From: Eledone cirrhosa
Lineage: Eukaryota
Assembly: GCA_964016885.1 (NCBI GenBank)
Contig: OZ024762.1
Span: 26,474,001 to 26,538,000, forward strand
Reading direction: 5' to 3'
Length of the DNA stretch: 64,000 nucleotides
The notes under the pieces were generated by a model that ran no database searches, was not told the DNA's origin, and worked only from the letters and a program-made list of their open reading frames with translations. The position numbers and the translations under genes are program-made. Positions 35,494 to 51,761 of this stretch are shown one piece after another (positions within the stretch are counted from its first letter, which is position 1; each line of letters starts with the position of its first letter).

Positions 35494-35537
35494 TTCTACT
35501 TTTGAAAAGCAGAAGAACTGCGAAACCGGTAAAGGAA
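35494..35537 (+). ncRNA. Type I HHR with U3:A8 core (UUGAAAA); second copy at 60014-60057 (-)
   Basis: ttctactt-TTGAAAA-gcag aagaa ctgc-GAAA-ccgg-TA-aaggaa. Palindromic stem III accggt. Lies within a fold-back element 35412-35606. Confidence 0.65.
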
Positions 35538-36779: not shown

Positions 36780-37359
36780 TGTATGCGATATGCCATCATT
36801 TCAAGTTAGTTCTCATTATATAATATAGTCAGACCGTCTTACGTCCAATTTAGGCTTATAATTCAATATCAATTTCATTCTAACTTTTCAAATAATTCCA
36901 TATTGTAAACTCAACGGGTTAGAAAGATTGTTAACATTCCAAATGCGAGTTCACTATGAGAGATATATGGTACGTTGGCAAACTCCGAAACCATTCTGTC
37001 AATTGTAACTAATCAGAAAAACCGTGTGATTTATACATATGATATTTCCCGTTAGAAAGTCGGAGAGAATGATTTGTGGCGTTGTTTCTTGATCTCTGTG
37101 CATTTGAATGGTCGACACATACGTTTTTAGTCCAGTTACTACCGGGGTCTATTCTTCTTGTATATTTCTTCTTTACCTCCTCTTTTATCAATTTTGTTAT
37201 ATAATACTTATATACAAACATAGACACATACACACCCATACGTCTGTGTGTATATATATATACATATATATATATATATAACGAAGGAATTGTGGTAAGG
37301 AACCAGATGGACCATAACGCACCAGAATACTCAATACTTAGGGTAGTAGAGTGGGTAAT

Positions 37360-40185
37360 AGGAAAAAGTATGACCCCCGACGGCAGAGCTCAAGCCGTTT
37401 CGACGGCTATTTCTGGACTAAATTTGAATGTTTAGCCTGGTAAATAAATAGCCGAACTTGTCAAGGGATACTTCCTTATATGGGAGGATTATAGTTGTCA
37501 AGAGGATTGGTCAAAATTTGTTGTAAACAAAAATAAATCTATCATGGCATTTGGTGGGAGGTAGGAGTGGCTGAACTTGCCTGTAGAAAATCGAGGGAGT
37601 GAGTGGAGCCGGTCAAGCATTGAAACTGAAATCTATACAGCAGATTCTAAGGATAGTGTATGAAAAGTCGAAACATTGTTCTGGAGAAAATGGAGGAGGT
37701 GAGTTTATAGAATAGGTAAGTCAAATGAGAGTAGGAGACAATAAAAATAAAAAAATATATAAAATTAGAAATGAATAAAAAAAACAAAAACAGTAGAGTC
37801 TATAAACAGCTGCTATAATTAGTAGGTGTTGCTTGTACAGCGAAAGCTATAGAAAAGGTTAATAAGATGAGAATGGAAAATACTAAATAAGAAATTGTAG
37901 AAGTGGGTAGTGAAAAAATATATAACTTTTCAGGGGTCTAACACAGCTGCTATAAATAGTTAGTACAGCGTAATCCGCCAATGCTATCTTACAATTACAG
38001 GTTAATCAGTTGAGAATAGAAAATACTAAATAAGAAATTTTGAAATTTATGAATTGGAGTAGTAACAAAAAAGATACAAAATTACAGAGGTCTAACATAT
38101 CTGCTATAAATAGTTAGTCAAGCGTATTCGGCCAATTCTATCTTAAAATTACAGGGTTGGGGGCACTGAGACTACAGAGGCCCGATTGGCTGCATCGGGG
38201 TAGGCGAAAAGGGAAAAACAGACGACGAAGAAGATCGGGGGTGGAAGGAATTGATAGGGTGATACGGGAGGAAGAAGAAAACATAGAGGAAAAGTAAAGA
38301 GGTATATCTACCTGTGTAAGCTGGGGTTTCCTCTAACTTATTCGGCAGGTGTGTGGTATCAGCCCTTGTCTACCCACCCGGGTCGTTATGGGGTTTGAGG
38401 GCGAGGTAAGTCCTACGCAATCTGTGTTTGCATGGGGTTACCAGTTCGTCTTTCTTGTTTAGGAGTTGGTCCTTCGAAAACAGCATTTGTAATGTTTGCT
38501 CCGAGCATAAGTGAGCCAAGTGAGATTGTAGGTTATATTATTATCTTTGAGGTCCCAGATGTGGCCCGAAAATCTTCTTTAGGCTCCTCGAAAAGCACTT
38601 CCCACTACAACACCGTTACCACAACATAATCAACAAAAACACCACCAAACTCTCCTACAGCACCACACCTAACTTCGCACAACACATCGTCTCTTCAAAC
38701 AACAAAAAACTCCACCCCTATGGAAGAAACAACCTAGACATCAGTGGAGAGCCGACCAGGAGGTGTAACTGCCCTGATAGATCTACGTGCCCCCTCAACA
38801 ACAGATGCCGAGAACGTAACGTGATCTACCAGTGCAACGTGAGGACGGACACCTCCAACAAAGCTTATATAGGATTAACCGCTTGTGACTTCAAGACCCG
38901 ACTCTACCAACACAGTCATACGTTCCGAAACCCGGTCCGGTGACATGCCACTACACTTTCGGGCCACAACTGGGACCTCCAAGATAATAATATAACCTAC
39001 AATCTCACTTGGAACTTACTGTCCAGAGCTAACTCTTACACGGGAGGACGCCGTCCGTGTAAGTTATCCTCGGAGGAAACATTACAAATGCTGTTGTCGA
39101 AGAACCAACTCCAAAACAAGAAAGACGAACTGGTAACCGCATGCAAACACAGATTGCGTAGGATTTACCTCGCCCTCAAACCCCATAACGACCCGGGTGG
39201 GTAGACAAGGGCTGATACCACCCACTTGCCGAATAAGTTAGAGGAAACCCCAGCTTACATAGGTAGATGTACCTCTTTTCTTTTCCTCTATGTTTTCTTC
39301 TTCCCTCCGTCTCATCCTATCACTTCCTTCCACCCCCGTTCTTCTTCCTCGTCTGTTTTTCCCCTTTCGCCTACCCCGATGCAGCCAATCGGGCCTATGT
39401 AGCCTCAGTACCCCCACCCCTGTAATTTTAAGATATAATTAAGAAGAATACGTTTGACTAACTATTTATAGCATATGTGTTAGACCCCTGTAATTTTGTA
39501 TCTTTTTTGTTACTACTCCAATTCATAAATTTCAAAATTTCTTATTTAGTATTTTCTATTCTCAACTGATTAACCTGTAATTGTAAGATAGCATTGGCGG
39601 ATTAGGTTTACTAACTATTTATAGCAGCTGTGTTAGACACCTGAAAAGTTTTATATTTTTTCACTACCCACTTCTACAATTTCTTATTTAGTATTTTCCA
39701 TTCTCATCTTATTAAACTTTTCTATAGCTTTCGCTGTACAAGCAACACCTACTAATTATAGCAGCTGTTTATAGACTCTACTGTTTTAGTTTTTTTATTC
39801 ATTTCTCACTATCTAATTTTATATTTTTTTTTATTGTCTCCTACTCTCATTTGACTTACCTATTCTATAAACTCCCCTCCTCCATTTTCTCCAGAACAAT
39901 TTTTCGACTTTTCATACATTATCCTTAGAATCTGCTGTATAGATTTCAGTTTCAACGCTTGACCGGCCCCACTCACTCCCTCATTGTTCTACAGGCAAGT
40001 TCAGCCACTCCTACCTCCCACCAAATGCCATGATAGAATTATTTGTGTTTACAACAAATTTTGACCAATCCTCTTGACAACTACAATCTTCCCATATAAG
40101 AAAGTACTCTTACCAGGCTAAACATTCAAATTTAGTCCAGAAATAGGCTTGAAACGGCTTGAGCTCTGTCACCGGGGTCATACTT

Positions 40186-40190
<5 letters not shown>
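37360..40190. mobile_element. Penelope-like element as a large inverted structure: minus arm 37360-38572, plus copy about 38590-40190 with GIY-YIG remnant
   Basis: CNCPDRSTCPLNNRC, NVIYQC, YIGLTACDFKTRLYQH at 38765-38915. The ~1.2-kb arms are reverse complements with scattered differences. Confidence 0.85.
37363..37476 (-). ncRNA. Type I HHR with U3:A8 core (UUGACAA) and branched stem II at the PLE 3' end
   Basis: gtatccc-TTGACAA-gtt cggctattt...aaatagccg tc-GAAA-cggc ttgagctct gccg-TC-ggg ggtc atac. GUC triplet. Confidence 0.65.
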
Positions 40191-40248
<58 letters not shown>

Positions 40249-40251
<3 letters not shown>

Positions 40252-41418
40252 ATGTATATATAATGTATTTTGCAATACACTTTATGCTTAATTAAAAGCA
40301 TTTTGAAGACCGTAAGCTATTGTTTTAAAGTAGTGACAAATTCACTCACTTTGATCTCAGCAAACAGGGGAGATGAGCCGACAAGACTTGTTTCGCTTTG
40401 GTTGAAGCTTATCAAGGCCAACTACCCCACCTGTCTGCTGAGATCATTGATGTTATATATATAATAATCAGGAGCTGATTATTCAGAGCGGTTGTTGGTC
40501 AGGCAGAAATTAAAAATTAGAATTGGAGCTCTAAAATAGCAATATATATATGGATGTATATATAATGTATTTTGCAATACACTTTATGCTTAATTGAAAG
40601 CATTTTGAAGACCGTAAGCTATTGTTTTAAAGTAGTGACAAAGTCACTGAGATCAAAGTGAGTGAATTTGTCACTACTTTAAAACAATAGCTTACGGTCT
40701 TCAAATAGCTTTTAATTAAGCATAAAGTGTATTGCAAAATACATTATATATACATCCATATATATATTGCTATTTCAGAGCTCCAATTCTAATTTTTAAT
40801 TTCTGCCTGACCAACAACCGCTCTGCATAATCAGCTCCTGATTATTTACTAGATTTCTATAAGAATATAACATCAATGATCTCAGCAGACAGGTGGGGTA
40901 GTTGGCCTTGATAAGCTTCAACCAAAGCGAAACAAGTCTTGTCGGCTTATCTCCCCTGTTTGCTGAGATCAAAGTGAGTGAATTTGTCACTACTTTAAAA
41001 CAATAGCTTACGGTCTTCAAAATGCTTTTAATTAAGCATAAAGTGTATTGCAAAATACATTATATATACATCCATATATATATTGCTATTTCAGAGCTCC
41101 AATTCTGATTTTTAATTTCTGCCTGACCAACAACCGCTCTGCATAATCAGCTCCTGATTATTTACTAGATTTCTATAAGAATATAACATCAATGATCTCA
41201 GCAGACAGGTGGGGTAGTTGGCGTTGATAAGCTTCAACCAAAGCGAAACAAGTCTTGTCGGCTTATCTCCCCTGTTTGCTGAGATCAAAGTGAGTGAGTT
41301 TGTCACTACTTTAAAACAATAGCTTACGGTCTTCAAAATGCTCTTAATTAAGCATAAAGTGTATTGCAAAATACATTATATATACATCCATATATATATT
41401 GCTATTTCAGAGCTCCAA

Positions 41419-41424
<6 letters not shown>
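40249..41424 (+). mobile_element. Retrozyme-like array: inverted 1.3 monomers (40249-40646) plus about 2.5 tandem 316-bp monomers, in (TA)n
   Basis: 316-bp period (cores at 40908 and 41224). Homologous to the 310-bp family. Confidence 0.85.
40877..40971 (+). ncRNA. Type I HHR with U3:A8 core (UUGAUAA); copies at 41193-41287 (+) and 40352-40446 (-)
   Basis: ggcc-TTGATAA-gctt caacca aagc-GAAA-caa gtc ttg-TC-ggct. Long stem I extension tgatctcagcagacagg/cctgtttgctgagatca. Confidence 0.75.
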
Positions 41425-41499
<75 letters not shown>

Positions 41500-41531: not shown

Positions 41532-41600
41532 ATTTTATTATGCGCATTTCAAAAACAAATATCATCATGGGATGATATCTGCGTTCTCATCAGTTAAAAT
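41532..41600 (-). ncRNA. Type I HHR (family also at 50535-50603 - and 50664-50720 +; fragment at 12940-13103)
   Basis: CTGATGA-gaac gcagatatcatc ccat gatgatatttgt tttt-GAAA-tgcgca-TA-ataaaat. Confidence 0.75.
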
Positions 41601-41659: not shown

Positions 41660-44070
41660 TATGTAAAATAAAGTAAGATGGATATATGAGATTGAGAAAC
41701 AAATGAGGAGGGTAGGAAAAGGTAAGGAAGAGGAAGATAGAAAATAAAGGATGGTGGGGGAGAGTATAAGAAGGAAGGATGATAGAGGAGGAGAAATGAG
41801 TGATAGAGAGAGAGAGAAATAGCCTTTACAACTGAGAAAACTTTGTCTCACAGAGAGAAATTAAAAAACCATTGGGAGATAATAGATAATTTAAAAAGAT
41901 TTTGAAATTAAAAGTTAATGAGGTTTATGGATGTTGATGTCTGTGATTGAAGAAAAAGGAATTAGGAATAGTATTAATTTAGGTTTATATATTGAAGGGT
42001 TTAATAATATGTGCGAAAAAAAAGAGTTTATTAATATGTATTATTAAAATAAAAAAGATTAAGGATATTAAGGATATAATGTGAAAGAAGGAGAAGAATA
42101 AATGAATTATGAACTTAGAGGAATTAGTTAGGGTTTAAGTTTGTTTTTATGTATTGTAATATGTAAAAGTAAATAATAGGTTTAAAACGAGCATGGAAGG
42201 AGAGAAGAATAAAAGAGAATTTAAGGAAGAAAACATATTTAACGTCAAAACGTATATATGTTTATAAACATTTTCTAATGGTAATATTATTATATATTAA
42301 AAAATATATAGTTTCTATGGCCAATAATATGATAAAAAATGGAAAAATGGAAAATGCTGTAGTGAGTAATAATATGAATTGAGAAGTAATTGGGAAGTAA
42401 AAGTTACAGATTAAAGATTAGAAATTAAAAAAGAAAAAAAGGAAGAAAGGGAAAAGGATAAAAAGAAGAAAGATAGGAGATCACAACGACATAGAGTGAG
42501 TAAATTGTATAATATAATATACTGAAATAAGGTAGAAAGATGGATATATTTGTAAACGATATATAGCCTTTGAGAAAAGAAGATTTTAAACTAATTAGGT
42601 TTTGAGATATTAGCTGTATATTTTATGGAATGTTCTATGGGATTTATGCAAGCAGAGCGAATATAAATCCGTACGTCTATTTATTATAGAATTAAAATTA
42701 GATATAATGGTAAATTTCTCGGCTAGGCAGAGATTACATGGGAAGGATAGGGAAGAATTCAGGTAAGGAAAGATGTTGCAAAACTTTCTCCAATAGATGT
42801 TATAGTTAATATGTTTGTCTTTTAAGGACCATATGAGTTCCGAGAGTGTCGTGTTAGTTCTTTTAAGTTGGTATTTTAAAGACGATTTGTGATTATAAAA
42901 TCTTGCATTAAAGGAAGTGGAAGTGGAACCGAAATAGGTAAAAGAATTAGTACCAGTTATAACCTTACATTCATACACTAAGTTTTTATCAAGACATTGG
43001 TTATTAAGAGGAAATTTAGTTCTAACAGGGCAATTACAATTACGATTAGAGAAATTAACAGAGTTATTAACAAGTGACCTATTATTCTTTATAGAAGGAA
43101 TTGGTTTGGAGAAGTTATTTACGATAGGAAATATAGTTTCCTGATTTAGATTGGTATTATGAACATTCAACGAAGTTACGTTTGACGTCGTATTTAAATT
43201 TACTGAATCTAACCTAGAGTTAACATTGACGTCGGGTATACTACTGCTATTATTATGACGCTCAGTGTTGGATGTATGTACTTTATTACTTAATATGTTA
43301 TTATTGTGTTTAGAGATAATGTTAGAGATGTTGGAAGTGGTGGAATAAGAGAATTTGATTGTATGTTTGTTAATGATTTTACTATAGATATGCGAGGGAG
43401 GGAAGCATTTATGTAAGGCCCTAAAGAATAGTTTAGGAATATTATTAGTGATAGATAGAGAAAAAGGAGCATTATACCAAATCATATTTTTGTATCTAGG
43501 TCTTTTATTTAAGTTATTGGAATGTTCATAATTAACTATTTTACTATAAGTCCTTCGATGATTGATTTCTTTACTGTATTTAATTTTATCAGGATAGCCG
43601 GCTTTGGAAAGCACATTTTTATAGTAATTGGCATTAGCGTCGAAGATAACTTTATTAGAGGATAGATTTGAGATTATCTTTTCAATATTACTGACTATAG
43701 CATTTTCAACGTTAGTGGGGTGGTTAGATTTAAAATTAACATAATTTAGATTCCCATTGTTTTTATGGTAAGGGTAATATAGGCCAGTGTCAAGATTAAG
43801 GGATATATCCAAGAAGTTATCTAGTTTGACGTTGTTATCAAATTCAATTTTAAGGTTATGGTGCTTAAATAGATCAAGTATATTGTTCTTAATAATTGTT
43901 TCAACTTTTGGCACAAGGCCAGCAATTAAACAGTGCATTACTGGTACTTTATTTTATCGACCCCGTAAGGATGAAAGGCAAATAATATTAAGGTTAACTA
44001 AATTACAGTTTAAGACAGTAAAAAGGGCATCGTCACGATAAATTCCACCGCGAAGTTGAGGAATTTTCCG
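41660..44070 (-). mobile_element. Penelope-like element, 5'-truncated (RT C-terminal part plus GIY-YIG), with SINE insertion
   Basis: GGIYRDDAL at about 44022-44050, NFLDISLNL, CNC..FPLNNQC, LVY, YFGSTSTSFNARFYNH, CNLCLAEK. Long 3' region. Confidence 0.85.
43893..43982 (-). mobile_element. 5'-truncated SINE inside PLE RT
   Basis: Reverse complement of the SINE 3' half; supplies the [15 protein letters not shown] start of ORF 42610..43938. Confidence 0.85.
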
Positions 44071-45416: not shown

Positions 45417-46209
45417 CTTGGACTGTTGAAGTGAACAGACGTGTTTCTATTGCTCTCTACAAAGTCAGTATCCAGCTACCCAGCTTTAAAGCCTATTTGA
45501 CCGAACATATATATGTATATATATTTGTAACCACGTGCTTTTCCTACCATCTCGTAAGTACGTTTTCATAACTACAGATTATTATATACATTCGTTTTTC
45601 TCTTAATATCTTCAAACAACCAAATAACCCAAAACTTTTAACAGCCTTAAACAACCAAATAACCAAATCTCACATCCATAAAAGAGAATACACATCTATA
45701 TATATACGCTACCTTAATATCTTCAAATAACCAAAGGCTCACTCACATAAGGAAAAAAAAGTATATACAAATACACGTGCTCTCCCTTCAAACTCGCAAG
45801 TAAGTCTTCTTAACTACAAACTATTATATACACTTTTTTTTCCTTGGATATCTTCAAACAACCAAATGACCAAAAACTATTAAGATCCTCAAACAACCAA
45901 ATTCACATCCATAGGAGAGAATATATATATATACACGATTCTTTAATTTCATCAAATAATATTATATACACCCGTTTTTTCAAATATTATATACACTCGT
46001 TTTTCCTTGGATATCTTCAAACAACAAATAACCAAAAACTATTAACATCCTCAAACAACCAAACTCACACCCATAAGAGAGAAAATATATATATATATAC
46101 GCGATTCTTTAATTTCTTCAAATAACCAAAGTCTCACTAACGTATCAAATAACAAATATCTTAAAACGCACACAAGGATAATAATAATTTAAAAAAAAAA
46201 AGAAAAAAT

Positions 46210-47088
46210 ATGACTACTGACCAGCAAACCCACAACGGACGAAATTGGTTTGAAAATGAAATTGACCCCTTACTAAACACATGGTTTTCTCTGTCACAAA
46301 CATCAAACATTAACGCGTCATGTCTGAATGAAATTGATGAAAAAACAGCCCAAACATTTACGACGAGGTCTGCTAAGCAGATATACAACAAATTAAAACA
46401 CATCGAAGTCTCTTTCAAACAAATTCAAAACCCTTTTGAAAAACTTCGACATATTTACTCTAATGGACAAACACAACAACAACAACAACAACAGCCAGAA
46501 AGCCAGGACCAACCACTACTGAATTCAAGCATCGCTGAACAACTAAATGACTGTATCACTCAGCCATCATTATCGCCATCACCATCACCACCGTCACCAT
46601 CTCCTGCCACACCTACACCTTCTGCCACACCAATTGCTAGTAATGGACCACTGCCCTCTCTCCCACCACAGTTGTCATCATCATCATCATCACCACCAAT
46701 GCTTTCTTTCCCCACATCACCACCACAACCATGCCATAGTCAAAAGAACTATAAAAAGAAAAGTTCTATGGAGCTGTATGCACCTCCCACTACACATACT
46801 AGAAACCCCCAAATATGCCGCTACTCACTACGTCAGAGGCTATGCACACGTAGCGACTGTACATTTACCCATTTACCGGGTACTAGGCGCACTAACGCTG
46901 CCAGCCATCACCAAAGCACGCTGCCCGCACGTATAGGTCGCAGTCCCAAAATCTGCCAAAATTCCAAACGTGAGAGGCTGTGTCTGCTGACTGACTGTCC
47001 CTTCACTCATCTTCCTGGGACACAATGCACGAACAGAAAAGGGGCTTCATGCCAACCCACAAACCACAATAAAGCCACCCCCTGCTGA
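46210..47088 (+). CDS. LINE ORF1 with two CCCH zinc-finger repeats
   Basis: CRYSLRQRLCTRSDCTFTHLPGT and CQNSKRERLCLLTDCPFTHLPGT (C-x8-C-x4-C-x3-H). Confidence 0.7.
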   Translation: MTTDQQTHNGRNWFENEIDPLLNTWFSLSQTSNINASCLNEIDEKTAQTFTTRSAKQIYNKLKHIEVSFKQIQNPFEKLRHIYSNGQTQQQQQQQPESQDQPLLNSSIAEQLNDCITQPSLSPSPSPPSPSPATPTPSATPIASNGPLPSLPPQLSSSSSSPPMLSFPTSPPQPCHSQKNYKKKSSMELYAPPTTHTRNPQICRYSLRQRLCTRSDCTFTHLPGTRRTNAASHHQSTLPARIGRSPKICQNSKRERLCLLTDCPFTHLPGTQCTNRKGASCQPTNHNKATPC

Positions 47089-47439
47089 GGTAATGCTGCT
47101 CCAGTCTCCTCACAAAGACATGATTACAACGACAACAAATACAACAACAACAAAAATAACGCTGCTCCAGTCTTTTCACAAAGACACAATTACAACAAAT
47201 ACAACAACAACAACAAAAGAGGGAACTGCAACCCTATCCAATGTTGTAACCACAAATCCAATCAAAAACTGCTCCCTGAACAAAAAAGAATCTTTCTTTT
47301 TTAGCCATGAACCTGGCAAAAGAGATAGAGAAAAACATTTTAGCCATCACCCAACACTATCCTTGCTGTCACTAACACACAATCACAAAACAAGCCCCCT
47401 GCAACAGTAAAAACCAGCCACCACACTAGCCACCACATT

Positions 47440-50366
47440 CTTACTCAATACACAAGGTATCAGCCCATCCAACAATGCACAGAAATGGAAGATCCAATTC
47501 ATTGAGGATTGGGTTGGTAACCATCTATTTCACACCCCCTTCTTCATTCTTACTGAGACCCACCTTGACAACTCCCACTTGGAGGCCGAAGTAAGAGTGA
47601 GAAATTTCACAACCATCCGTGCGGATCGTGTTGGCAGAAGGAAGGGTGGAATTGCCATTTTCCTGCATGATTCCTTTACGGCAGATGGCAACACAACATT
47701 CTCTAATGGATACTGTGAATCAGTCACTGTGCACAATAAAGCCAATGACCTGACATTAGTTGGGCTCTATAGGCCGCCACAAACACCCATAATCTGTTTC
47801 AAAGAATGCCTCAACATTATTAAATGCTTTATCAAACAGTGCCATTCTAGCAACATACTTTTGATGGGAGTCTTTAATCTACCCTGTGTCGATTGGTCTA
47901 CATGTAGTTTGAAACCAGGCTCCACGGCCTCAACCACTGACAAAGAGGCTGTCGAGTCACTTCTTGACTTCATGAATGAGTTTTTCTTGTCTCAACTTGT
48001 CCTTGCACGAACGAGGCATCAGAAGAACATTCTGGATCTAGTGTTTAGTAACCACACTAACACTATACATAATATTACAGTGGAAAAAACCCTTCTCTCA
48101 GACCATGACATGGTTCTTTGTAACCTGAGAGTCCACCAGCCGAAAGCTAATCCCAGGGTCCTCTCTCCAGCACACCCATTTGATAACATGGATCTCTACA
48201 ATGCCAACTGGGATGCAATTATGAACGAACTATCACATGTCGACTGGTCTTTTACACACGCACACACTTCCACCAACATCAAAACATCTTGGCAGATCTT
48301 TGTAGACACACTGTACCAAATATATGTACAAAACACACCCCACCAAAACCTGTGAAAAAAACCAAGTGCAGTATCCCCCAAAACAGAAAAACAATTATCA
48401 GAAAAATAAAAAGAACAAACAAAAAAATTAACACACTAAAATACTGCCAATAGCAACACACGCATTCAATGGCTATCACCCTGCTTGAGTCAACACAATA
48501 TAACCTCCAGCAATGCATGAAGACCATCATCAATAACCAAAGAATAGCTGAAGAGTGGTGGGCTATTGAGAAAATCAAACTCAACCGCAAAGTGTTCTTC
48601 TGATTCGCTAAAAAACACAAGGTCACCGTCTCCACTGATGGCCCCCTAGTTGAAAATGGCAGACTCCAGGACAATGCCAAAACCATGGGCGAGATACTGC
48701 AGAAACAATACTTCTGTTTTCAGCAATCACGATATGGCCGATCTGGGCCGTATCAGTGATATTAACCCCCAACACACTATATCAGACATAACGTTTGGCG
48801 CCCATGATGTCTTAGCGGCAATAAACGAAATTAAACACAATTCAGCAGTAGGCCCCGACAGGTTCCCTGCTTGTGTCCTGAATGTGTGTCGACACCAACT
48901 TGCAACTCCTCTTGCTAATCTGTGGAGGAACTCACTGGACACTGGCTACATTCCTGAAAACTTTCTGTCCCAGTCCGTGGTCCCAGTCTTCAAAAAGGGA
49001 AATAAGTCCCTTGCAGTGAACTACCGTCCGATCTCACTCACCTCTCATATTATCAAGGTATTTGAGAGGGCGGTGAGATCACGAATAACCGACTTTCTTG
49101 AAAGCAACGGCCTGCTGAACTCCAACCAATATGGGTTCCGTAATGGAAGGGACTGCCTAACGTAGCTCCTGCATCACGTTTGACGATGTTTTGAGAGCCT
49201 TGGGAGAGGGCTCCAAAACTGATGTCGTCTACCTTGATTTCAGCAAGGCCTTTGACAGGGTTGATCATAAGTTTCTACTGAAAAAACTATCCAATGTTGG
49301 TGTCTCTGGAAGGTTACTACAGTGGATCAAATGTTTCCTGACAGGCAGAATCCAGCATGTTGTAGTCGAAAGAATAAAATCAAGCCCTGCCAAAGTCCGC
49401 AGTGGCGTCCCACAAAGCACTGTGTCGGGCCCACTTCTTTTCATCATCTACATTAATGACATTACTGATATCATCAAACACAGTGACATCAGAATCTTCG
49501 CAGATGATTCCAAGCTCCAAAGGGTCATCCATGAGGTGGGTGACCGGACTAGCCTTCAGTCAGACCTACTGGCTGTTATCCAATGGGCAGAGATGAATAA
49601 TATGCTGTTGAATGAGGATAAATTTTAACTAATCCACTTTGGAAATAAGGATGCTCTGAAACTACCATACTCTCCTCCTTTGGGTGAAACTCTGGTGGCT
49701 TCCAATTACATCAGAGTCCTGGGAGTAATTGTGGACAACAGTATAAGCTGGGCCACTCATATAAACAGCAAAGTTGATATGGCCCGCAGAATGTGTTCCT
49801 GGATTCTCAGAATTTTCCAGTCGAGATATAACCACACTGTTATCCATCCCTTCTCCATTTTTCCCGACCCCACCCTGAATACTGTTGTCCACTGTGGTCA
49901 CCTCACACGAAACAAAGTATCATGAAAGTTGAAGCACCCCAAAGGTCAATTACTAAAAAGATAGTTGGCATGACAGGCCTTGACTATTGGGGGTCGATTA
50001 GAAAAGCTCAAACTTTATTCTCTCCAACGTCGCCGTGAGAGCTACATTATCTGTATGATGTGGAAAATATTCCATCAGCTTAGCCCAAATGATGTTGGCA
50101 TCATCTTTAGTGTACACCCAAGGCTTGGGATCCGTGCTATCTGCCCACGACAAAAATCCCACTCGCTTCACATAACAACAATACGGCACAATTATTTAAC
50201 CTCAATTGGCCCTGCACTCTTTAACATTACACCAAAACACATCAAAGCAGAGACAGAGCCCATCAAGTTCAAGAAGTCTTTGGATAAATTGCTTCAAGAA
50301 ATCCCGGATAAGCCTCCTACACCCGGATATGCCTCCGTAAACAATAACTTCTCGAGTGGGCCATAG
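47440..50366 (+). pseudogene. CR1-type ORF2 (APE-RT), fragmented
   Basis: ORF pieces 47579..48355, 48650..49165, 49191..49628, 49680..49925 and 49980..50366 are collinear LINE ORF2 segments. Confidence 0.88.
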
Positions 50367-50503: not shown

Positions 50504-50845
50504 AGATCAAAAGATGGTTAAAGGAGTTCCATATATTTTATTATGCGCATTTCAAAAACAAACATCATCAAGCAATAATATTTGTGTTTTCATCAGATAA
50601 AACATGTTGATTTAAAACTGCACTATCCACAAGTGTTTTTTACCCTTCATATCATGTTCTCCTGTTTTATCTGATGAAAACACAAATATCATCTTGTTTT
50701 TGAAATGCGCATAATAAAATATATGGAACACCTTTAACCATCTTTTGATCTTATATTATGCATACTCCAGTCCCACAAACTGTAGAGTGCTTCTTATCCG
50801 ATATCTGCATTGCTTTATTGTACTACAATAAAACTCACCTCCTAC
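50497..50845. mobile_element. Short non-coding fold-back element with two oppositely oriented HHRs (50535-50603 -, 50664-50720 +)
   Basis: gttttat-CTGATGA...GAAA-tgcgca-TA-ataaaat on both strands; 7-bp stem I; (TA)n flanks. Confidence 0.78.
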
Positions 50846-50857
50846 ATATATATATAT

Positions 50858-51761
<904 letters not shown>

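Follow-up and report, generated by a model that had tools for sequence, protein, structure and literature searches.

A stretch of 64,000 nucleotides of the genome of Eledone cirrhosa (contig OZ024762.1, positions 26,474,001 to 26,538,000), in the following called the window, contains two truncated copies, A and B, of a Penelope-like element (PLE) and two short 3'-end fragments. The features, with positions counted from the first nucleotide of the window, are:

37281..38571, minus strand: copy A, an inverted, 5'-truncated Hydra-clade PLE that ends in a hammerhead
37281..37357, minus strand: about 77 nt that extend past the shared 3' end, with (TA)n behind them; read depth is high at 37300-37343
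37358..37478, minus strand: type I hammerhead of copy A, made up of stem I, which is extended distally, the core, a long stem II capped by a hairpin, a stem III of 5 bp and GUC
37464-37458, minus strand: core strand U3-U4-G5-A6-C7-A8-A9, UUGACAA, the U3:A8 variant, supported by the descriptor and by reads
37380..37398, minus strand: stem III ACGGC/GCCGU with loop III, UUGAGCUCU, which contains the palindrome GAGCUC that could pair two copies
38551..40193, plus strand: copy B, the 5'-truncated partner, head to head with copy A; its core was lost by a 22-nt deletion near 40110, and it ends in (TA)n
38551..39204, plus strand: what is left of the GIY-YIG endonuclease in copy B; CxCx5C linker, YIG, E, N and CxH are present, the frame contains one stop, and RT is absent
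13651..13709, plus strand: short 3'-end fragment between microsatellites, hammerhead 3' half only
8243..8294, minus strand: short, decayed 3'-end fragment (fragment D) in a microsatellite, hammerhead 3' half only

The element and its copies

Copy A comprises the C-terminus of the endonuclease (38572-38373), a 3' UTR of about 0.9 kb, and the hammerhead. BLAST gives an identity of 88.7% for copies A and B, and 1184 ungapped columns contain 71 differences. The initial annotation called the element endonuclease-encoding, which is correct for a remnant but not for an intact gene: copy B has an in-frame stop, copy A has a 46-nt deletion in the endonuclease, which according to the reads is private to this copy, and an intact RT-EN ORF is absent from the A/B locus. 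The same annotation had noticed that the 3' half of the hammerhead recurs, and it was indeed found at 13651-13709 (+), 8243-8294 (-) and about 40136-40190 (+). Its statement that the copy near 40110 has lost the 5' core also holds, as the missing 22 nt include UUGACAA, and the 3' half is decayed there, too. Fragment D was also considered as the end of the Hydra-type ORF at 8927-9860, 630 nt upstream, but this was set aside; because it matches the A/B family and sits in a microsatellite, it is treated as a separate insertion.

The extension of about 77 nt has no second copy within the window. Reads matching up to 37366 continue into the hammerhead 3' half, while other reads end in (TA)n at 37358. 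Since reads run on through the extension, it represents family sequence, and it is likely an optional PLE "tail". It is longer than the tails of 30-40 nt given for Hydra-clade PLEs in the available parts of Craig et al. (2021, PMC8557442), and the 3' UTR of about 0.9 kb is a further difference from these elements.

The assignment to the Hydra clade, as defined in that study, rests on the endonuclease motifs (linker CxCx5C, YIG, E, N, CxH), on flanks of (TA)n and on a hammerhead at the 3' end. As in the Hydra-clade PLEs described there, a C-terminal GIY-YIG domain is combined with the linker and with CxxC and CxH around E and N, and CCHH is absent. The linker of copy B reads CNCPDRSTC, and C72, P81, C86, Y93 and G108 are invariant in an alignment of 27 rows. 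The first C of CxxC, E, N and CxH are present in copy B; the second C of CxxC is altered in copy B but present in copy A. Insertion into (TA)n, a hammerhead near the 3' end, an inverted, 5'-truncated partner and a tail, all found at the A/B locus, are further features shared with these PLEs.

A search of 1.84 billion proteins yielded 5365 relatives at E values up to 0.001. The best full-length matches are about 33-44% identical, and the best 150 of the 5365 include no close member of the family; one match is annotated as coming from Argonauta, a cephalopod, and another from a fish. In the 17 relatives of at least 580 aa YRDD is always present, DK[TSG] in 14 and RW[KR] in nine, and the window locus itself is 5'-truncated. 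Pfam gave no match for the 130-aa open part of copy B, and for 13 relatives it gave one weak match to GIY-YIG and one to RVT_1. A word-index search with the 130-aa piece did not detect longer homologs.

A complete type I hammerhead with a U3:A8 pair

On the minus strand, the hammerhead of copy A is flanked at its 5' side by ccc (37467-65), which precedes the core strand. Stem II is formed by 9 bp between cggctattt (37454-46) and aaatagccg (37412-04), and it is capped by a 7-bp hairpin (37437-37416). This helix is joined to the core by G10.1:C11.1 (37457:37402) and a 2x1 internal loop of U residues, a connection that was absent from the initial annotation. GAAA (37401-37398), stem III and GUC follow, with C17 at 37379 and a run of five G after GUC, and cleavage is predicted between 37379 and 37378. 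The three helices around a core with an open stem I define the motif as type I. U4, G5, A6, A9, G12, A13, A14, A15.1:U16.1, H17 and G10.1:C11.1 are all present; the 3:8 pair is the Watson-Crick pair U3:A8 instead of the consensus C3:G8, a published natural variant.

A hammerhead descriptor that allowed C3:G8 or U3:A8 had 22 matches in the window, compared to a mean of 0.18 in 60 block-wise dinucleotide shuffles, none of which produced a match with at least 8 bp in stem II and at least 5 bp in stem III, i.e., one as strong as copy A. The fold of the 121-nt stretch has a z-score of -3.3, and one of 200 shuffles folds as well. Therefore, the complete motif recognized in the initial annotation, from the core over the 9-bp stem II with its cap, GAAA and the 5-bp stem III to GUC, is real and exceeds what shuffled sequences yield. 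Rfam models gave no hammerhead match in 37290-37560 at E values up to 10, with just two weak, unrelated matches, and no hammerhead is among the best 150 of 217 Rfam matches.

A minimal PLE hammerhead, i.e., an obligate dimer without helix III or with 0-2 bp, was considered for copy A, but is ruled out by the 5-bp stem III; the palindromic loop is the one feature that both have. A second UUGACAA is found 38 nt upstream of the core, at 37496-37502 (-). It is kept in copy B and lacks a partner for G10.1:C11.1, and it is probably not a core.

The U3:A8 variant has already been published, also in association with PLEs. U3-A8 hammerheads with about 1,300 matches have been tied to the Cercyon PLEs of Schistosoma mansoni (Cervera and de la Peña, 2014, PMC4209133), and the accessible part of the supplement holds a PLE-marked UUGAAAA example. 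Like these, the motif described here is a type I hammerhead in a PLE terminal repeat with U3-A8, a long stem II closed by G10.1:C11.1 and a palindromic loop III; the option to dimerize via this loop is a trait of PLE hammerheads. In contrast to the minimal Cercyon motifs, which have almost no helix III, its stem III comprises 5 bp with a loop of 9 nt, its stem II bears an additional hairpin, and it belongs to the Hydra clade. For natural U3:A8 hammerheads of other families, activity in vitro has been stated by Perreault et al. (2011, PMC3088659). They exhibit the same compensatory change of the tertiary pair 3:8, and the available text contains no description for the present family. The Hydra rows available from Craig et al. 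(2021) have CUGAnGA in 26 of 26 cases, as required by the descriptor used there, in contrast to UUGACAA in copy A, and the octopus family Hydra-1_oBim has a motif different from this one.

Read evidence for the family state

Four public runs, with 20,000-44,000 records per run, were compared to positions 37300-38600. X1 and X2 represent one sample, and X5 and X6 are RAD libraries, the depth ratios of which are skewed by restriction cuts at 37424 and 38431; depth on the contig does not equal copy number. Near-fixed differences were taken from 40 of 430 difference rows, with 5% as the lower limit for a difference. The family is abundant in the public reads.

Position 37468 differs from copy A in about 98% of the read depth, and thus private changes of copy A do appear among the difference rows. 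The 40 of 430 rows do not contain a near-fixed change at 37464 (U3) or at 37459 (A8). On the plus strand, X1 and X2 have three T>C places each (38098, 38305, 38332); as all three are accounted for elsewhere, a change from A8 to G8 is below 5% in these two runs. X5 and X6 have seven and nine T>C places, respectively, mostly outside the 40 rows. From the retention of A8 together with the lack of a near-fixed U3 change in these rows it follows that U3:A8 is likely a family trait of this PLE, as far as this indirect reading can tell; a minority C3 or another allele may be present in the family. The initial annotation had proposed that the variant core also exists in a coding PLE lineage, with conservation of UUGACAA as the point to be checked. 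The reads support it, and together with the endonuclease motifs they place U3:A8 in a Hydra-clade PLE, probably as the family state.

The reads also reveal the age of copy A. At 33 near-fixed differences, copy B has the read allele in 22 cases and that of copy A in the remaining 11 (seven rows in a low-complexity stretch were left out). This indicates that the two copies had a common template and that copy A has aged. A G run shorter by one base accounts for 28% of the depth in X1 and for about 74% in X5 and X6, and together with the read allele at 37468 it results in a clean cccc/gggg stem I. The depth on the 3' half of the hammerhead (37375-37420) is about 10-20 times that on the 5' core, in agreement with the two short 3'-half fragments in the window; this drop indicates that many family-related copies may have another 5' half. 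Reads with loose ends at 37419 point to a possible subfamily in which stem II is shorter. The short 3'-half copies correspond to the substrate strand of a two-piece hammerhead.

Folding in silico

In copy A, the active fold lies 5-6 kcal/mol above a rival fold that pairs UUGAC with GUCGG, the largest gap of seven motifs compared (0.9-3.9 for the six others). If the letters of the read majority are used, the active fold comes to within 0.3 kcal/mol of the optimum, whereas a canonical core placed into this context has a gap of 5.2 kcal/mol. Such energies ignore tertiary contacts and are weak evidence, but the difference between 0.3 and 5-6 kcal/mol suggests that the family RNA is well shaped and that copy A may be impaired. 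In these models U3:A8 may avoid a misfold. For the piece 37375-37398, the homodimer formed via loop III has a predicted energy of -27.1 kcal/mol, compared to -6.6 per monomer hairpin.

Other elements in the window

Several other repeats of the window contain hammerhead motifs. A tandem array of 310-bp units, about 99% identical and with a C3:G8 core, lies at 3662-7603, and 316-bp units with a U3:A8 core lie at 40240-41473; both have an inverted copy, are retrozyme-like and related to each other, and as tandem hammerhead repeats they fit the animal retrozyme class (PMC7229834). The related inverted-repeat elements at 60075-61176 (cores near 60913, +, and 60529, -) and 57743-58869 (core 58427, +) are 72% identical. 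The former has a long type I hammerhead with GUGACCA (G3:C8), the latter one with UUGAAAA (U3:A8), and the inverted partner of 58427 has CUGAAAA, with 3:8 unpaired. Both look like PLE 3'-end pairs in (TA)n. A small UUGAAAA hammerhead with a 4-bp stem II and a palindromic helix III (ACCGGU) adjoins (TA)n at 35502 (+), and canonical-core type I hammerheads with a long stem II and a palindromic helix III are found at 51271 (+) and 51998 (-).

Further remnants of Hydra-type PLE endonucleases are located at 8927-9860 (-), 42613-43953 (-) and 55139-55485 (+). The second is accompanied by a hammerhead with the core CUGAUGA (near 41593), to which motifs at 50596 (-) and 50671 (+) are related, and the end of the third, near 56640, is a decayed 3' half that resembles a hammerhead. 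Two non-LTR retrotransposon remnants were recognized with Pfam, at 23904-29135 (+; zinc knuckle, APE endonuclease, RT, zf-RVT) and at 46165-48355 (+; Myb-like ORF1, APE endonuclease). From about 15700 to 23350 the sequence is repetitive, and both of its strands contain long open frames.

Similarity of the PLE to the 316-bp, 310-bp, 58.4-kb, 60.5-kb and 35.5-kb hammerhead families does not exceed that of shuffles: the local alignment scores were 18 versus 21 in shuffles and 26 versus 24, and the matches are short and AT-rich. A pseudo-LTR or 3'-end sequence common to the PLE and the retrozyme-like repeats of the window is absent. In contrast, the 316-bp unit (UUGAUAA, U3:A8) and the 310-bp unit (CUGAAGA, C3:G8) can be aligned over their entire length, core on core, with a score of 97 versus 23 in shuffles, and thus the switch at 3:8 happened inside that lineage. 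The 58-kb family (UUGAAAA) is likewise homologous to the 60-kb family (GUGACCA, G3:C8). The pair 3:8 has therefore changed within both lineages.

The 3:8 pair in other Hydra-type PLEs

Among 79 Hydra-type loci from metagenomes, 46 have a motif downstream, 44 with C3:G8 and one each with U3:A8 (L042) and G3:C8 (L041); the opposite strand contains three motifs. Counted as 40 families, 38 have C3:G8, one U3:A8 and one G3:C8. L041 is an intact Hydra-clade PLE of 711 aa (ORF 459-2594) with a G3:C8 hammerhead in both terminal repeats (285-330 and 2788-2833), and it is the sister of a C3:G8 family. A second intact element, with C3:G8, is present on the other strand of the same contig (3240-5441). In L042, a Hydra-type endonuclease ORF is followed by a U3:A8 hammerhead (UUGAUAA, 1248-1290). 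Both variants nest among C3:G8 relatives in the tree. The protein of the window PLE is on a long branch; its grouping with L042 has a p-AU of 0.245, i.e., a common origin is not rejected. Judged by these sequences, the 3:8 pair switches sporadically in Hydra-type PLEs.

Alternative explanations

Taken together, it is quite probable that a complete type I hammerhead ends an old, 5'-truncated and broken Hydra-clade PLE, that its U3:A8 pair is likely an inherited, compensated change of C3:G8, and that it is predicted to self-cleave. The opposite view, with C3:G8 as the family norm and U3:A8 confined to copy A or to a minor subfamily, would be in line with C3:G8 in 38 of the 40 related families and in all 26 published Hydra rows available (PMC8557442), with the retention of the core in only one copy of the window, and with the read evidence resting on 40 of 430 difference rows. 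However, it would require two compensating transitions in a single copy, G8 is below 5% of the depth in X1 and X2 by the T>C count, and neither 37464 nor 37459 has a near-fixed row although the neighboring position 37468 is among them, making this view very unlikely. There is a somewhat better, but still small, chance that the core is a decayed, inactive relic, so that the family, or at least copy A, no longer cleaves and U3:A8 is carried along without selection. Copy A is old, with 22 of 33 near-fixed read differences private to it, it misfolds in silico by 5-6 kcal/mol, and the core was lost in copy B; in addition, insertion of the anole PLE in vitro did not need hammerhead cleavage. On the other hand, all other core positions are intact and the change at 3:8 keeps the pairing, with the read-majority letters stem I is perfect and the active fold is close to the optimum, and the Hydra-type motifs reported have Watson-Crick states at 3:8 only.

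The initial annotation went further and regarded the family as a candidate helper or source for the non-coding families of the window. It has been proposed that animal non-LTR retrozymes are derivatives of PLEs, which would be their origin or helper (PMC7229834; Li et al., bioRxiv 10.64898/2026.07.22.740005), and a connection between the pseudo-LTRs of PLEs and these retrozymes has been made, with homology for 24 of 57 Xenopus families. The same rare core within one window, and a 316-bp array that directly adjoins copy B, might thus be taken to mean that this PLE was the source or specific helper of the U3:A8 repeats (316-bp, 58-kb, 35.5-kb) and that these inherited its core. The claim of a source did not survive the comparison of sequences, since alignment scores stay at the shuffle level, the designs of stems II and III differ, and the U3:A8 unit of 316 bp has a colinear C3:G8 relative. 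The pseudo-LTR homology on which the retrozyme-PLE model is built (PMC7229834) is missing for this family. Moreover, U3:A8 recurs in unrelated PLEs, and the switches within lineages together with the nested variants make a common U3:A8 weak evidence of descent. The claim of a helper fails for the locus itself, which has no RT and a broken endonuclease and thus cannot mobilize anything; the A/B locus is a dead copy. This origin of the repeats is therefore very unlikely. A generic helper role of PLEs is plausible and has already been proposed in print, and nothing ties this family to it.

Proposed mechanism

The reading favored here, an inherited and probably functional U3:A8 hammerhead, would imply the following life cycle. 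A full-length tandem element would have a hammerhead in each pseudo-LTR, and, by analogy with known PLE hammerheads, the folded RNA would cut after GUC and thereby process multimeric transcripts. U3:A8 would keep the tertiary pair, with the cleavage chemistry expected from the hammerhead class. The 5-bp stem III should permit folding as a monomer, and the palindromic loop III would allow dimers as well. Most published metazoan PLE hammerheads cleave poorly in vitro. As the genomic copies run past the cut site, their templates were presumably uncut at the 3' motif, or re-ligated. This is consistent with work on the anole PLE, where reverse transcription starts downstream on uncut RNA, and where the hammerhead is protein-assisted and its cleavage dispensable for insertion in vitro. 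Reverse transcription that often stopped early would explain the many 3' halves of 50-60 nt in (TA)n and inverted pairs like A/B, the structures of which are directly visible. In this PLE, U3:A8 would most likely have arisen independently of the U3:A8 non-coding repeats in the window.

Significance

The result adds one Hydra-clade family to the PLEs known to have a U3:A8 hammerhead, and little beyond that. That PLEs may act as helpers of retrozymes or give rise to them has been published before, and this locus contributes nothing specific to the idea. A practical consequence is that hammerhead searches with a fixed CUGAnGA under-count PLE ribozymes. One may go further and speculate that the 3:8 pair of PLE-type hammerheads is freely exchangeable under selection, with several switches in this genome, each fixed as an escape from a local misfold. 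For U3:A8, the instances would be the Hydra family, the 316-bp retrozyme and the 58-kb family; for G3:C8, they would be the 60-kb family and the metagenomic element L041. We regard this as possible but rather doubtful. A natural G3:C8 hammerhead was not found in the openly licensed literature, including supplement text. If free exchange were true, descriptors bound to CUGAnGA would miss whole high-copy ribozyme families, including natural G3:C8 ones. Related sequences of the window naturally have C:G, U:A or G:C at 3:8, and they represent a set with which the influence of RNA context on the tolerated pair could be tested. A more interesting lead than the proposed source of the non-coding repeats is that the 3:8 pair has switched repeatedly, with natural G3:C8 among its states.
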